The notes under the pieces were generated by a model. The model searched no databases. It was not told the DNA's origin and saw only the letters and a program-made list of their open reading frames with translations. A DNA stretch of 64,000 nt, from positions 13,470 through 77,469 of the forward strand of contig JBHLRQ010000004.1 of NCBI GenBank assembly GCA_048882385.1. The letters run 5' to 3'. This stretch comes from Candidatus Thorarchaeota archaeon. GTDB taxonomy: Archaea > Asgardarchaeota > Thorarchaeia > Thorarchaeales > Thorarchaeaceae. Made by a program: the position numbers and the translations under genes. Within the stretch, counting starts at the first letter, position 1. Each line of letters opens with the position of its first letter. Below are positions 52,648 through 58,194 of this stretch, in pieces.

Positions 52648-53241
52648 ATGGAGCCACTTGTATTTCATATTCAGAAAGGACGCCTCGTTAAAATGAAAGA
52701 CCCAGGAGCTTTCGGACGAGGTGATTGCTATCTCGTTGATGCTGGAATGAAGATCTACCTCTGGATTGGTCCAAAATCGACTGTAGATGAGAAATTCCTC
52801 ACAGCTGCAACTGCTGTCATGAGAGACTCAGCTCGTGAAGGCAAAGCCGACATAGATCGGATAGAGGGAGGAAATGAACCTGCAGACTTTAAAGCACTCT
52901 TCGATGACTTCAGACTTACAGACGAGGATACCGAAGGTATCCTAAAGAAAGTTCAATTGGAAACTCATGAACACAAACTCTGGCGAGTTCATCGTGAGGG
53001 GGATGAAACCTTCTTTGCAGAGGTTGATCTCAAAAAGGATTCTTTGAAGAGCGATGATGTATTCCTATTAGATGCATGGGATGACATCTGGGTATGGCGT
53101 GGAAAAGATGCAACGTCACGTGAGAAGTTTGATGGGACTATCCTCGCTAGAAGGTATGATGCAGAGCGCGTTGGCGTACAAGAGATAGAATTGATTGAAG
53201 AAGGACAGGAACCAGAAGAGTTCTTCAGATCTTTCTCATGA
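52648..53241 (+). CDS. two-domain gelsolin/villin-type protein
   Basis: Two gelsolin repeats: FGRGDCYLVDAGMKIYLWIGPKSTVDEKFLTAATAV and LKSDDVFLLDAWDDIWVWRGKDATSREKFDGTILA. Confidence 0.8.
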   Translation: MEPLVFHIQKGRLVKMKDPGAFGRGDCYLVDAGMKIYLWIGPKSTVDEKFLTAATAVMRDSAREGKADIDRIEGGNEPADFKALFDDFRLTDEDTEGILKKVQLETHEHKLWRVHREGDETFFAEVDLKKDSLKSDDVFLLDAWDDIWVWRGKDATSREKFDGTILARRYDAERVGVQEIELIEEGQEPEEFFRSFS

Positions 53242-53246
53242 TTATG

Positions 53247-54686
53247 TCATACTAGTCTGTAGTGACCTGGACGTGGTTCATAGAGGACTCCACTGTCCTT
53301 CATACGAGTCAGGGTCTCTGCAGCTACATGACGTTCTACGCTAGCTTCCTGTGCTATCTCATCGAGAGTTGGTCCAAGGGACCCGCGTTTTCCGCCATCC
53401 AATTTTCTGATTGCTTTCAAGACCTTGGTGTTGAATCTGTCAAATCGGCTTCCCTTTCCCCAGTCTCCCTCAAAACCCTCTTTCAATTCAGTAAGCTCAA
53501 TGAACTCCTTTAGGGCAGGTTCAAGAATCCGGTTCCAAGCAGTCTTCAGATCCTTTGCTGTTATCTTATCTTTCCAATATGCCCGAGCTGTAGACCTGGC
53601 CAATCTTAGAGTACTCAAAGGTCTTCCAAGAGAGTCAGCATCTAATAGATTTCCACGTGCTAAAGACCCCTCACCCAGACCAAAACTCTCCTGTAATGAT
53701 TCTAGACGTGAGAGCACATGTTCGGTTGCAGCATCGATACTCTTCTTTGAAACCTCTGGAGTGAGGAGTTGAAATGTAATGGCAGATTTTAGGATTGGTA
53801 GTCTCAGCTCGGAGGGATTACCAGTTTCTACCCAGAAGTCTTCAGTAGCAAGTGCGATTGGGACATCAGGAAGTGATGCCGTTTGTCCTTCTGTGAGCGT
53901 TCCTAATGAAACCTCCCTGAATCCAGCGGGGTCTCTACGTTTGATACAGAGTTGCTCGATTCTCTTTTTCGAGTAGGACCCTATATCGAATCGGAGAAGT
54001 TTAGGAGATTTGACTTGAATGCCCCTAATGTTTCTGTATGCAGAAGGTCTTCCTCTCATAGCTGGAGGTAATACATTCCTGATGAACGAAAGTAGCCGTT
54101 TTACATTGGTTTTTGATGCTATTGCCTGAATTCCGGTTGTCAGACCACCAACACTTTCCTCGTAAGGTGGACTAGAAACAAAAAGACGTGCGAAGACTCT
54201 CTTACTTGCTTCTGCCATTCCTACATGCTCAAAAAGAAGATCAGAGATGTCTTTGAGTGTTGTAGGAGGCCGTATGTGAGAAAGAAAATCAACGGGTAGC
54301 GCTTCATAAGACTCAGCTGTGAAGGCACGTGTAGTAATCTGAGAGCGTAGCGGTTGTGGCGCAGCAATTCTACTCCCTGTTACTTCTATATATGCACCGT
54401 CAGGGGGAATCTGTTGGTCTTCCTCAAAGAAAATGAACTCTCCTTCTAGCAACCACTGACTTGGGGTAAGAAGAACCATCGATTTGTCACGAGTGTGATG
54501 CACAAATCCTCGATATCGATAGAGGCGCCTTGATACACGCTCACTAAAGTCCATTAGTAGTTTCGATTCCCATTCAGCAAGTTCAGTTCCGTATTGTCGA
54601 CTGTATAAATCACTAACACTGACCGCATCAGCAAGCCGATCTTGGTCAGATTTAAGACGTTCATACATTTCTTCGAATATACCCAT
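53247..54686 (-). CDS. unknown 479-aa protein with C-terminal winged-helix, directly abutting the upstream methyltransferase (TAG-ATG, no spacer)
   Basis: ATG 54686 directly follows the methylase TAG (54687-89). C-terminal GPTLDEIAQEASVERHVAAETLTRMKDSGVLYEPRPGHYRLV looks like a wHTH. No P-loop and no recognised catalytic motif. Confidence 0.6.
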   Translation of the reverse strand: MGIFEEMYERLKSDQDRLADAVSVSDLYSRQYGTELAEWESKLLMDFSERVSRRLYRYRGFVHHTRDKSMVLLTPSQWLLEGEFIFFEEDQQIPPDGAYIEVTGSRIAAPQPLRSQITTRAFTAESYEALPVDFLSHIRPPTTLKDISDLLFEHVGMAEASKRVFARLFVSSPPYEESVGGLTTGIQAIASKTNVKRLLSFIRNVLPPAMRGRPSAYRNIRGIQVKSPKLLRFDIGSYSKKRIEQLCIKRRDPAGFREVSLGTLTEGQTASLPDVPIALATEDFWVETGNPSELRLPILKSAITFQLLTPEVSKKSIDAATEHVLSRLESLQESFGLGEGSLARGNLLDADSLGRPLSTLRLARSTARAYWKDKITAKDLKTAWNRILEPALKEFIELTELKEGFEGDWGKGSRFDRFNTKVLKAIRKLDGGKRGSLGPTLDEIAQEASVERHVAAETLTRMKDSGVLYEPRPGHYRLV

Positions 54687-55661
54687 CTATCCTTTCTCCT
54701 CCCTACGAATGTACTCACGGTAGGCATGCGGATATAGCTTTGAAAGCTCTTCAATAGATGGAAGACGATTACTATAGGGTTGGTATGTTTGGCCAGGTTG
54801 CACAGATTGAATCTCTTTATCTAGTAGCCTTTTCAACTGTTTATTGATTTCAAAACCAATGAAATGTCTGAAGTTAGATTTTGCAGCAATGGCCGTGGTT
54901 CCATTGCCCATGAAGGGATCCAATACAATATCACCGGGTTTTGAGGAGAAATCCACACATTTAGAAACTACTTCAAGAGGAAGTTTGGTTGCATTTTTTG
55001 CCAAACCTGTGCGATATTGTCGTTTTACAACCCAAACATCTTCAGGATAGTTCTCTATCTTATTGAAGAAGTATTTCTTTGGATTCTTGACAAAAAGGAT
55101 GACATGATAGTGACTTGAAACAAAACGTTTCTTTGTGTAGACTCCAAACGGGTAATGCCATATCAAGTGATTCAGAGTGACTAGTCCGGCTTCTCGTGCT
55201 CCAGTCAAGATTGATTCGAGATTGTTCCAACCGCTAAATACGTATGCTGAAGATGTCTGTTTCATCATTCTAGGCAGTTCAGCCAACCAACTTCTAGTGA
55301 ACTGACGATATTCGGTAGCCTCCTCATAGCCCTCTACAACCAGACTCTCATCACGATTATACACACTACTCTTTCCGTTAAAGGAAATCCCAAAGGGGGG
55401 ATCTGCAATTATTAGATCAATGGAAGCATTTGGAATTACCTTCATTCCTTTTACACAGTCTTCGAATATTATAGTGTCCAAGTCAAACTCAGATGATGGC
55501 GATGTTGTTTTGAAATAGAGGTGTTCGGCCTTTTTTCTAGACCAGTCATATGTCGGTTTGAAGTAGAACTCAGCAAGATTAGGAACGTATCTTTTCGCTC
55601 GTCCTTTTCGAGATTTCTCCTTCGATTTTAATTCACTATCAGTGGTCATTTGTAATTTCAC
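54687..55661 (-). CDS. beta-class N6-adenine/N4-cytosine DNA methyltransferase
   Basis: Motif IV DLIIADPPFG precedes motif I LDPFMGNGTTAIAA (beta permutation, PF01555-like). GTG 55661 or ATG 55649 start. Confidence 0.85.
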   Translation of the reverse strand: MKLQMTTDSELKSKEKSRKGRAKRYVPNLAEFYFKPTYDWSRKKAEHLYFKTTSPSSEFDLDTIIFEDCVKGMKVIPNASIDLIIADPPFGISFNGKSSVYNRDESLVVEGYEEATEYRQFTRSWLAELPRMMKQTSSAYVFSGWNNLESILTGAREAGLVTLNHLIWHYPFGVYTKKRFVSSHYHVILFVKNPKKYFFNKIENYPEDVWVVKRQYRTGLAKNATKLPLEVVSKCVDFSSKPGDIVLDPFMGNGTTAIAAKSNFRHFIGFEINKQLKRLLDKEIQSVQPGQTYQPYSNRLPSIEELSKLYPHAYREYIRREEKG

Positions 55662-55721
55662 AATGATGTTCTAGTCGGTTCTTCTTAAGACTAGTCATTC
55701 TTTGGTGTTTCCGAATTCAAC

Positions 55722-56810
55722 TTACATTATATCTGAGGGGTCAACGCCTCTAGACATCGCCCGTTTTGTCATCCAATCTAGTTGATTGGCTGGCTGATCG
55801 GGTTTGCCAGGAGTTTCATCACGAACCAACTCAAGTGCACCTTCTGGACAAACAATGGCACAGACTCCGCATCCAATGCATCGATTTACGTCAACAACAC
55901 ACACATCTTCAGGAACACTAAGTGCGTCAAACTGGCATCGATCAACGCATGACTCACATCCAGTGCACAGCTCAGCATCCACAGTCATTATGAAGTCGGT
56001 CTTGATGTATTCGCGAGGGGTTTCTAGTTTCTCAACACCTCTAAGGACTCCACAGCAGCAGGTGCAGCAGTTGCAAATGAAAGTCCGTCCAGATTGGACA
56101 TTGTACGTACAATGAACAAGACCAGCTTCTTCCGCTTCTCGAAGTAGTCGGAGTGATTCCTCTTTTGTAATCGACTTTGTAAGTTCTTCATCATCGAATG
56201 CATTCTCTTTATTCGGAGCAAATGCGAGACAGACAGACCTGGGATAATCACAGCCCTCACCTATCAAATCCTTCTGTTTCCTACAAATGCACTCGCGAAC
56301 TCCCCATGAGGCAGAAGACTCAATCAATTCTTCTGCTTTCTCGAGACTATGAATCTCAAGCTCTGTGCTCACGCTCTGATTGACTGGAATGACCTGAAAA
56401 ATAACCGGTCTAGTAGCTACAATCTTTCTGAATCCATTATCATTTTCAAAATACTGCTCGAGAATTTGAGCAAACTCCTCATCCATCCGATTCAGTTGCT
56501 CCTCATAGATGCCTACAGCGAATGGCAACAGACCGTATTTTCTAGCACCTGCACTCTTTGACATCCAAGAGTTAATCTGACCCTTTTCGTGCATCAAGTC
56601 AAGACGTTCTTCAAGTTCTTCCTTTGGACTATTTAGCCGTGTACTTATCTCATCCACAGTTTCACCACTAAGTTTTAGCTGACTGGCGAGCTCAGCTTCT
56701 TCTGGTGTGAAGATCCACTCGAGTACTCTTAGATGTGAACCATCATCAGTTGGCGGAAATCCATTCGGAATCGTGTCAAGGACAGCAGCTAGTTTTTCAT
56801 AAGGATTCAT
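55722..56810 (-). CDS. Fe-S protein with C-terminal 2x[4Fe-4S] ferredoxin domain
   Basis: CTGCESCVDRCQF and CIGCGVCAIVCPEG motifs plus an upstream Cys cluster ICNCCTCCCG. Start set at ATG 56810. Confidence 0.65.
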   Translation of the reverse strand: MNPYEKLAAVLDTIPNGFPPTDDGSHLRVLEWIFTPEEAELASQLKLSGETVDEISTRLNSPKEELEERLDLMHEKGQINSWMSKSAGARKYGLLPFAVGIYEEQLNRMDEEFAQILEQYFENDNGFRKIVATRPVIFQVIPVNQSVSTELEIHSLEKAEELIESSASWGVRECICRKQKDLIGEGCDYPRSVCLAFAPNKENAFDDEELTKSITKEESLRLLREAEEAGLVHCTYNVQSGRTFICNCCTCCCGVLRGVEKLETPREYIKTDFIMTVDAELCTGCESCVDRCQFDALSVPEDVCVVDVNRCIGCGVCAIVCPEGALELVRDETPGKPDQPANQLDWMTKRAMSRGVDPSDIM

Positions 56811-56859
56811 GGCAATCACAACTCCGTTCTCATTTACACAGCTGCAGATAATCCTTCTG

Positions 56860-58194
56860 TTATTCTGGACATTGAAGTTTGATTCCAAGTGGACTAAGTT
56901 CTTCATTGACTTTTTCAACAATATCGGAACATTCGAGTCCCTTTCCAATTAAAATGTGAGCAAGGGATTGTTGAAATGGTGGAAGAAATGGAATTGAACT
57001 AGCTTCGAGAATGGATTTGTAAACCTCTTTTACTTTCGGAACTTTCAGACAATTCTCAAGCTCCGTAAGACTGGTTTTAGTTTCAAGAAGCATCTGACTG
57101 ATCTTCTTGAGAAATGCAGTCTTTGGTACATTTACTGATGCACCAAAGAGTTTCTCTACGTTCTCTTGGAACCAATCATGCATTTTATCAACATCATATA
57201 CTGGAAGAACGATTGGCGATTCACCATCAACATCTGGAGCAATAATTCTAATCATTCCACGTTTCTCAGCAGAGAGTACAAAGTCAGAGAATCTTCGGTA
57301 TCCTAACTTTTCAGTTTCCAGACCCAATTCTCGGATTTTCAAACCAATGTCTCTAAGTGAATAAGGTGTTCCTTCATTGAGAGCATCTTCTGCCACTTTA
57401 GCCAAAAATGCGAAAGCTTCGTTGACCTCATTTGAAACCTTGACTGATTGGGGCGGCAGCTTGTCAGGAAGTGTCAAAATGGTGGCTGGAAGCTCACCCT
57501 CTAACTGAATGTATCTTTGCGCTTCTGACCATTCTAAGAAATCATTCCAATGAGTAAAACCCATCTCTTTCTCATCAAATTCAGGATTCAGTGACTTCAT
57601 AACATGTTTTGCATGACCAACACCAGGTTTGCTACCAGTTTTTGCTATAATCCTAATTACTTCTTGAAGCTGAACCGCAGCAAGATGTCTTAGTTGTACA
57701 ATACTCTGTACAGACTCTTCACAGTCTTCTGGACGCACGCAGTCTAAAGCTGGTCTGAATGAGAAAATATCACTATAAATGGTGGCCAGATCAGGTAGTT
57801 CTGATGCAGTTATAATTGGGTTGCTGATGAGCCATAACTCAACACCATGTTCCTTTAGAGCTCCAGCAATCAATTTGAAATCGCCGTCACCGGTAATCAA
57901 TACGTAGCGAGTAGTTTCGGGATAGTGGACTAAATGATCTAGAATATATGCAGCCATCTTGTAATCACAAGCATTATCTTTCACATCAGGTACGTGAATA
58001 AGATCGTAGCCCAGTGAGTAAAGTTCCTCAGCCATCCGTCTTCGCGAATCCCAATCCGCAAAGGCATACGCCTTGATGAGTGTCCCAGATTGTCGAATCC
58101 GTTGGGTCATCACTCTATGGGTTGCAGATTCATCGGCAACATTCTCGACATCCCAGAAGATGGTCATGTGTGGTGAGGTTTCTGCGGAAGCCAT
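56860..58194 (-). CDS. NYN (LabA-like) nuclease-domain protein with two OST-HTH/LOTUS domains
   Basis: The N-terminus IFWDVENV...YVLITGDGDFKLIAGALKEHG is an NYN domain. Two repeats end in ...GFTHWNDFLEW... and ...LGYRRFSDFVLSAEKRGMIRI, the OST-HTH pattern. Confidence 0.7.
   Translation of the reverse strand: MASAETSPHMTIFWDVENVADESATHRVMTQRIRQSGTLIKAYAFADWDSRRRMAEELYSLGYDLIHVPDVKDNACDYKMAAYILDHLVHYPETTRYVLITGDGDFKLIAGALKEHGVELWLISNPIITASELPDLATIYSDIFSFRPALDCVRPEDCEESVQSIVQLRHLAAVQLQEVIRIIAKTGSKPGVGHAKHVMKSLNPEFDEKEMGFTHWNDFLEWSEAQRYIQLEGELPATILTLPDKLPPQSVKVSNEVNEAFAFLAKVAEDALNEGTPYSLRDIGLKIRELGLETEKLGYRRFSDFVLSAEKRGMIRIIAPDVDGESPIVLPVYDVDKMHDWFQENVEKLFGASVNVPKTAFLKKISQMLLETKTSLTELENCLKVPKVKEVYKSILEASSIPFLPPFQQSLAHILIGKGLECSDIVEKVNEELSPLGIKLQCPE

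Follow-up and report, generated by a model that had tools for sequence, protein, structure and literature searches.

In eukaryotes, MCMBP is an MCM-related protein without Walker motifs that serves as a chaperone or unloader of MCM2-7, and among archaea the MCM2 protein of Methanopyrus kandleri is reportedly naturally inactive and monomeric. M. kandleri MCM2 is an MCM paralogue of ~500 residues that exists beside a functional MCM and has apparently given up helicase activity; its structure (PDB 3F8T) is cited in PMC4619765. More generally, inactivated paralogues recur as structural subunits of the archaeal and eukaryotic replisomes, as seen for Cdc45/RecJ and the inactive polymerase domains (PMC3307487, PMC4104785), and a 2025 survey of the Asgard replisome treats MCM as essentially single-copy (PMC12680538). 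Here we describe a protein of 479 amino acids (aa), given the name pMCM, which is probably an ATPase-dead, shortened MCM paralogue. It is encoded in a window of 64,000 nucleotides from a Candidatus Thorarchaeota archaeon (assembly GCA_048882385.1, contig JBHLRQ010000004.1, positions 13,470 to 77,469 of the forward strand), and feature coordinates are given as positions within this window. The gene directly follows that of a beta-class DNA methyltransferase, and a sequence-only reading of the window had proposed the two as a candidate restriction-modification (R-M) system with a novel nuclease, a defence module, or a chromatin- or replication-linked methylation system. Both open reading frames (ORFs) were found as that reading had them:

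53247..54686, minus strand: pMCM, the 479-aa probable ATPase-dead MCM-fold paralogue, whole gene including the stop codon (ORF list)
54687..55661, minus strand: solitary beta-class DNA methyltransferase, 324-aa ORF, accessory member of the gene array (ORF list and PF01555)

Similarity of pMCM to the MCM helicases

No Pfam, NCBIfam or PADLOC family matched the 479-aa protein above noise, with 0 families of PADLOC-DB 2.0 at E <= 0.1. The MCM ATPase core, PF00493, matched neither this protein nor any of the 49 members of its family, and a PF00493 search of the window's own genome found the canonical MCM and missed the pMCM locus. The weak matches obtained with the single sequence all pointed to the ~120 residues at the end of MCM (NCBIfam MCM model; PDB 8x7t and 2m45), and a profile of 27 Thorarchaeota orthologues matched the lid and winged helix of MCM in the PDB with an E-value of 7.7e-5. 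By an exhaustive profile search over 1.8 billion representative proteins we identified 66 relatives of pMCM, including ~40 that are full-length (440-490 residues) and only ~20% identical. A family profile, A2, was built from a 49-sequence alignment including these ~20%-identity relatives; in the PDB it matched the MCM of Saccharolobus solfataricus (SsoMCM, 4fdg, E 5.6e-8) and an Asgard MCM (8x7t, E 4.1e-7), as well as MCM8, Mcm7, Mcm4 and Mcm6, with every match lying within the lid helix and winged helix. Run over 301 genomes of the phylum, A2 gave as its second match the C-terminus of each genome's own ~690-aa MCM, and Pfam searches of the 49 members returned MCM_WH_arc in 15, MCM_C in 10 and MCM_lid in 6. 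For comparison by hhalign we drew 17 intein-free Asgard MCMs from the genomes. In many Asgard genomes the open frame for MCM reaches 1000-2400 aa and the PF00493 match is split; these oversized frames presumably contain inteins. Residues 346-479 of pMCM alone aligned to the Asgard MCMs with a probability of 97% and an E-value of 7e-11, and the full-length comparison gave an E-value of 1.3e-12 over 447 columns, collinear from the OB (oligonucleotide/oligosaccharide-binding) region to the C-terminus. As judged from these profile comparisons, the C-terminal ~130 residues are homologous to the lid helix and the archaeal winged helix of MCM.

The fold of pMCM was predicted with AlphaFold. A first model, made from the alignment of 27 Thorarchaeota sequences only, reached a predicted local distance difference test (pLDDT) score of 52 and was replaced by one from the 49-sequence alignment, with a pLDDT of 87 and a predicted template modelling (pTM) score of 0.79. 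The latter model consists of a beta-barrel (residues 56-129; strands 56-65, 70-74, 83-86, 99-110 and 118-129), an alpha/beta domain (~140-340), lid helices, a long helix (377-409) and a winged helix, from which the following domains were delimited:

54297..54524, minus strand: residues ~55-130, predicted OB-like beta-barrel without zinc finger, putatively equivalent to subdomain C of the MCM N-terminus (model)
53652..54281, minus strand: residues ~136-345, predicted degenerate AAA+-like alpha/beta core with the SSPP...GG signature (model and Foldseek)
53250..53651, minus strand: residues 346-479, comprising the lid helix of MCM (GRPLSTLRLARSTAR), a long helix as linker and a winged helix of the archaeal MCM type (profile homology)

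When the model was compared with the PDB by Foldseek, the best 50 matches were all MCM subunits, both archaeal MCMs and eukaryotic Mcm4 to Mcm7, with a probability of 1.00, E-values of 1.3e-12 to 6e-10 and 410-600 aligned columns. The matched MCM chains include some of 491-596 residues, and the match can thus hardly depend on the C-terminal ~130 residues alone. The OB-like barrel is covered by the full-length alignments to MCM of both Foldseek and hhalign. In BFVD, several long full-length matches to the model were found, mostly without names. The statements made earlier from the bare sequence were all accurate at the level of the letters, including the absence of a P-loop, and the domain calls by eye were mostly right: the OB-like N-terminus is reproduced by the model, while the remarks on an MCM- or AAA+-like lid helix and a C-terminal winged helix are borne out by the statistics. 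The segment FVSSPPYEES, which had been likened to methylase motif IV, is instead part of the family signature SSPP...GG.

The motifs of MCM were mapped through the alignment onto all 49 family members, and the catalytic motifs are missing from every one of them. Walker A (GDPGTGKS in MCM) aligns to AIASKT-VK, read as A-I-A-S-K-T-(N)-V-K, and the lysine column holds V, S, A or L throughout the family. Walker B (DEFDK) falls mostly on gaps and sensor 1 (AAANP) wholly on a gap, while the zinc-finger cysteines correspond to gaps or non-cysteine columns. In place of the arginine finger (SRFD) the family has [S/P]-D-[F/Y/V/I]-P, with aspartate in the arginine column of 48 of the 49 members. The sensor 2 column is K or R in 40/49 (G-[RK]-P), and the next arginine of the lid (R368) is invariant. 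The strongest signature of the family is SSPP...GG (S171, P173, G180 and G181), located in the segment ahead of the former P-loop, and the best conserved domain is the winged helix, which ends with an almost invariant YEPRPGHYRLV. With the ATPase motifs lost, pMCM would be unable to bind or hydrolyse ATP as MCM does, or to unwind DNA.

Archaeal MCM (SsoMCM, 4fdg; Asgard MCM, 8x7t) has its parts in the order predicted for pMCM, with an OB-fold N-domain, an alpha/beta AAA+-type core, the lid helix, the linker and the truncated winged helix. In contrast to archaeal MCM, pMCM is ~220 residues shorter, is without subdomain A, zinc finger, Walker A and B, sensor 1 and arginine finger, leaves no room for the pre-sensor-1 hairpin and has no PF00493 match. 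M. kandleri MCM2 resembles pMCM in its length and in its occurrence beside a functional MCM; it is not known to have the C-terminal winged helix that pMCM keeps. The family profile gave a marginal match to it in the lid (E 0.17), and 3F8T was outside the best 50 structural matches. M. kandleri MCM2 probably represents an independent inactivation in another lineage. MCMBP may serve as a functional analogy to pMCM, an attractive one given the Asgard host. Membership of the MCMBP family was rejected at the sequence level, as PF09739 (MCM_bind) matches nothing, neither in the whole genome at E <= 10 nor among the 49 members at E <= 1. pMCM cannot be filed as an MCM helicase, yet it is derived from one, and it belongs to an unannotated family of ATPase-dead MCM paralogues without a Pfam or NCBIfam model.

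Distribution of pMCM and contexts of its relatives

A full-length pMCM was identified in 77/77 sampled genomes of the family to which the window belongs, in single copy and with open frames of ~480 residues. The Thorarchaeota orthologues are 479 residues long, give or take a few, and are 50-91% identical. In an unrooted maximum-likelihood tree they form one compact, short-branched clade (support 95/100) with a group of ~32% identity as its sister, and the other relatives are deep and long-branched. Named lineages among the distant relatives, at ~20% identity, are Odinarchaeota, "Asgardarchaeia" and Methanomethylicaceae (Methanomethylicia). A canonical MCM of 708 aa and two Orc1/Cdc6 genes are encoded in the window's own genome as well. 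They are located on another contig, C1, so that in this genome nothing connects the pMCM locus with an origin. On C1, MCM and one Orc1/Cdc6 gene are ~5 kb apart (58.3-64.8 kb); this is likely the origin region of the genome and is unlinked to the pMCM locus. Thorarchaeota have inherited pMCM vertically as a single-copy core gene and keep it alongside the canonical MCM.

A few records depart from this pattern. Three genomes of other Asgard families (G031, G048 and G199) contain pMCM matches of Thorarchaeota grade (E 1e-107 to 1e-121) that their family-mates are without; these are probably mis-binned Thorarchaeota contigs. In one further genome (G152, contig C15, 114802-116198) pMCM is found in two overlapping frames corresponding to profile positions 6-258 and 253-471, which is a frameshift or assembly error.

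Outside Thorarchaeota, six neighbourhoods of pMCM relatives were inspected. One distant relative is located among metabolic genes on a 1.4-Mb contig. In a Methanomethylicaceae locus (L040, 4810-8788), a relative of ~20% identity is flanked by a gene for the chromatin protein Cren7 and by a short Cdc6/Orc1-like gene (349 aa), and there is an intergenic gap of ~550 nt; the locus may represent an origin of the chromosome, or else an integrated element's replication module. Other distant relatives are found beside ParA, PIN and toxin-antitoxin genes, ORFans or an IS110 transposase, or together with an integrase and a DUF927 gene. The last arrangement is that of an Asgard locus (L086, 831-9336), where the relative has a tyrosine integrase and small ORFans to one side and a DUF927 protein of 718 aa to the other, next to housekeeping genes, and which looks like an integrated mobile element.

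These contexts raise the question of whether pMCM is a domesticated mobile-element protein, that is, a replication-origin or helicase-recruiting protein of an archaeal plasmid or virus that became fixed in the ancestor of Thorarchaeota. Archaeal MCM genes are known to travel on mobile elements, several of the distant relatives keep the company of integrase, DUF927, IS110 transposase, toxin-antitoxin pairs and ORFans, and the non-Thorarchaeota lineages are patchy and long-branched where the Thorarchaeota clade is compact. We consider such an origin quite unlikely: the contexts number only six, one of them clearly chromosomal and metabolic, and the tree is unrooted. Viral contigs of IMG/VR scanned with one distant relative returned nothing, and the sole match in PHROG was the C-terminus of a viral MCM.

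The adjoining methyltransferase

The 324-aa protein is a beta-class enzyme, as the sequence-only reading had recognized, with motif IV (ADPPFG) ahead of motif I (FMGNGTT). PF01555 (N6_N4_Mtase) matches residues 81-279 with an E-value of 5e-37, the PADLOC models for type II methyltransferases (MTase_II) and for orphan methyltransferases match as well, and the nearest solved structures are those of CcrM, DpnA, MboIIA and RsrI. The DPPF motif and a closer similarity to CcrM, DpnA and RsrI than to N4-cytosine enzymes suggest that it probably is an N6-adenine methyltransferase. CcrM (PDB 6pbd; structure match E 9e-26), an orphan beta-class enzyme, has the same beta order with DPPF and is likewise without a restriction partner. 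The NCBIfam model of CcrM matches the methyltransferase at E 7e-32, yet the score is 111 bits against an equivalog cut-off of 830 bits, and the C-terminal domain of CcrM is missing here. This methyltransferase is not universal even within the Thorarchaeota family.

The abutting of the two genes is real: the minus strand reads GGA TAG ATG GGT, the stop codon of the methyltransferase (54689-54687) meeting the ATG of pMCM (54686) with neither overlap nor spacer, and the purine-rich AGGGAGGAGAAAGG stands directly 5' of this ATG. The zero-nt junction is a peculiarity of the window's genome, the spacers in orthologous pairs being ~3-110 nt. Adjacency in the 77 genomes was counted by combining by hand the coordinates of two genome-wide searches, one for pMCM and one for the methyltransferase. 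The methyltransferase is immediately 5' of pMCM in about 57 genomes, is ~1.3 kb away in four and is missing from the array in about 11, which have only ~50%-identical homologues on other contigs; about five are indeterminate, their contigs ending there. Homologues of ~50% identity are common, and at times multi-copy, in other Asgard families that have no pMCM. The array itself is conserved at 61-67% pMCM identity and comprises genes for NYN, Fe-S or GNAT, methyltransferase, pMCM, gelsolin, Fpg, M20 peptidase, a luciferase-like oxidoreductase (LLM), Ham1 and TrmB. Three loci (L072, L073 and L082) have the Fe-S gene followed directly by pMCM, with the rest of the array (NYN-FeS-pMCM-gelsolin-Fpg-M20-LLM) the same, one (L076) has the NYN gene followed directly by pMCM, and in three others (L074, L075 and L081) the upstream genes are entirely different. 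Downstream, gelsolin, M20 and LLM are kept in all fetched loci and Fpg in most.

Unrelated genes were inserted at the junction of methyltransferase and pMCM independently in different lineages (L077, 7702-8823; L083, 3064-4074). Judged by eye, one locus has gained an apparent ABC-type ATPase and another an opposite-strand gene resembling a terpene synthase with DDxxD; the 1.3-kb inserts were on this ground rejected as lost endonucleases.

These results bear directly on the proposal of an R-M-like or defence module, in which a novel nuclease or other effector would have its toxicity checked by a co-translated methyltransferase. The touching stop and start codons, the match of the methyltransferase to the PADLOC type II models and an adjacency retained in about 57/77 genomes all speak for it. 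The partner, however, has an MCM fold and neither motif nor family of a nuclease, and it is a core gene of all 77 genomes with no PADLOC match, sitting in a syntenic housekeeping block and not in an island. pMCM is also intact and unchanged in the ~11 genomes whose array has no methyltransferase and in the four with intervening genes, and none of the six neighbourhoods outside Thorarchaeota has a methyltransferase adjoining the pMCM relative. Linkage with methylases is thus not conserved, and the 479-aa protein has turned out to belong to a housekeeping family. This proposal is largely refuted and has become scarcely credible; the pair is not an R-M or defence module. Since it is absent from the array in ~11 genomes and separated from pMCM in four, the methyltransferase is an orphan, accessory and dispensable neighbour in front of a core gene in one subclade.

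Upstream of the methyltransferase we found one further conserved feature:

55665..55698, minus strand: conserved promoter-like block ATGACTAGTCTTAAGAAGAACCGACTAGAACATC, which holds the palindrome GACTAGTC and a second GACTAG (conservation)

The palindrome GACTAGTC (55689-55696) and the second GACTAG (55671-55676) are present as first reported. The block ATGACTAGTCTTAAGAAGAACCGACTAGAACATC is located ~20-50 nt upstream of the methyltransferase start, and about 13 species of the genus have it almost unchanged, the flanking spacer being variable. Other genera keep only the TATA-like core CTTAAGAAG, and the palindrome becomes GACCAATC, GACTATTC, GATTACTC and similar sequences there. The block may therefore be read as a TATA-like promoter element with its flank. 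A conserved operator or a recognition or methylation site was rejected for the palindrome, whose palindromic character is lost outside the genus.

The other genes upstream conform to the earlier description, the gap between the Fe-S gene and the methyltransferase being 60 nt and that between the NYN (NYN-LOTUS) and Fe-S genes 49 nt, provided that the Fe-S gene starts at the ATG at 56810. This is probably the true start, as orthologues are 360-366 aa long; the mechanically called 408-aa ORF (55722-56948, minus strand) starts with TTG and shares 89 nt with the NYN gene. In the Fe-S protein, a family is recognized for the C-terminal 2x[4Fe-4S] part alone and none for the N-terminal part of ~300 residues. 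On the other side of pMCM, a two-domain gelsolin gene (52648-53241, plus strand) is convergent with it and is the most constant neighbour of pMCM over all Thorarchaeota genera examined, even where the upstream genes differ.

A subclade-specific unit of replication-coupled methylation, in which pMCM and the methyltransferase are co-expressed and pMCM, for example, tethers the enzyme to replicating or origin DNA in a CcrM/Dam-like manner, would agree with the operon-like spacing of 0-110 nt kept over many genera, the single conserved promoter-like block 5' of the methyltransferase, the similar divergence of both genes and the position of CcrM as the nearest characterized relative. We nevertheless regard it as improbable, as even two genomes of a single genus can differ in having the methyltransferase (G236 vs G005), unrelated genes are tolerated between the two, and the whole region is syntenic, so that adjacency alone tells us little. 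The earlier suggestion of chromatin- or replication-linked methylation is left in a weak form only: the partner does descend from a protein of replication, and nothing indicates that it depends functionally on methylation.

Candidate roles of pMCM

Replication enzymes that lose their activity are documented to give rise to structural subunits (PMC3307487, PMC4104785), and by analogy with such inactivated paralogues we infer for pMCM a non-catalytic role in replication. Besides the lid helix and a winged helix of the archaeal MCM type, the protein keeps a predicted OB-like barrel at the N-terminus and a predicted alpha/beta core of AAA+ type; it has lost the zinc finger, both Walker motifs (A and B), sensor 1, the arginine finger and the helical subdomain A. 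Through OB fold and winged helix it would bind DNA, or it would bind the replicative MCM, or both, and so act as a non-catalytic structural or regulatory factor of replication or of the chromosome. In one subclade the methyltransferase, with its own promoter-like element, is placed directly ahead of pMCM, and the two genes are probably co-transcribed there.

The same two DNA-binding domains might instead serve outside replication, in a chromatin or transcription factor that uses the dead AAA+ core as a scaffold. The winged helix, the best conserved domain with its YEPRPGHYRLV end, also resembles the domains of TrmB, MarR and IclR-type transcription factors, and the Thorarchaeota gene is unlinked to those of MCM, Orc1 or GINS. 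Such an exaptation appears unlikely, as deep divergence has left the whole MCM-like architecture and the length in place, which speaks for something beyond a DNA-binding tail; moreover, a basic residue is retained at the sensor 2 position by 40/49 members, the lid arginine is invariant, and one distant relative adjoins a Cdc6/Orc1-like gene.

In MCM, sensor 2 of one subunit works in trans, on the subunit next to it (PMC4619765), and it may be speculated that the basic residue retained at this position of pMCM is compatible with docking on the ATP site of MCM. A more specific form of the replication role can be proposed, though we give it a rather low probability: pMCM may be a dedicated non-catalytic partner of MCM, as a chaperone, loader, ring cap or unloader, with the co-expressed orphan methyltransferase tying methylation to replication in the subclade. 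Such a partner would dock on MCM via the retained lid and the trans-acting basic residues, and on DNA via the OB fold and the winged helix. If this is true, eukaryotic MCMBP or Cdt1-type factors would have in pMCM a functional counterpart from a prokaryote, and from the archaeal group closest to eukaryotes.

Several observations weigh against the interpretation of pMCM as an inactivated MCM with a role in replication and an accessory methyltransferase beside it. At the sequence level, the similarity to MCM is significant only in the C-terminal third. By hhalign, the core alone is placed correctly in MCM with an E-value of 0.13, and the N-terminal part alone, including the OB-like barrel, gives E 0.17 and is aligned to the wrong region of MCM. 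As neither is significant by itself, sequence-level homology is claimed for residues 346-479 only, and the assignment of the N-terminal and core parts to MCM comes from the structure prediction and from Foldseek alignments of whole chains. These alignments have low TM-scores (0.32-0.43), which is expected for multi-domain chains. Moreover, the mobile-element-like contexts of some distant relatives (integrase and DUF927, toxin-antitoxin genes, ORFans) mean that the ancestral role of pMCM may not have been in chromosomal replication. In about three quarters of the family the methyltransferase and pMCM genes sit tightly side by side and have diverged to a similar degree (58-75% vs 57-91% identity), which could still mean a functional link in that subclade. 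Finally, no RNA run was found to hold the pMCM gene.

No description of the pMCM family was found in the literature searched, and pMCM is not mentioned in the 2025 survey of the Asgard replisome (PMC12680538). The recurrent pair of a methyltransferase and a ~480-aa protein ought to be left out of any count of new R-M or defence systems, and a false lead is thereby removed. Being universal in one Asgard lineage, pMCM is an unlisted candidate part of the replication or chromosome apparatus in the closest archaeal relatives of eukaryotes, and it provides a concrete protein with which to ask how helicase regulators like MCMBP could arise from MCM.

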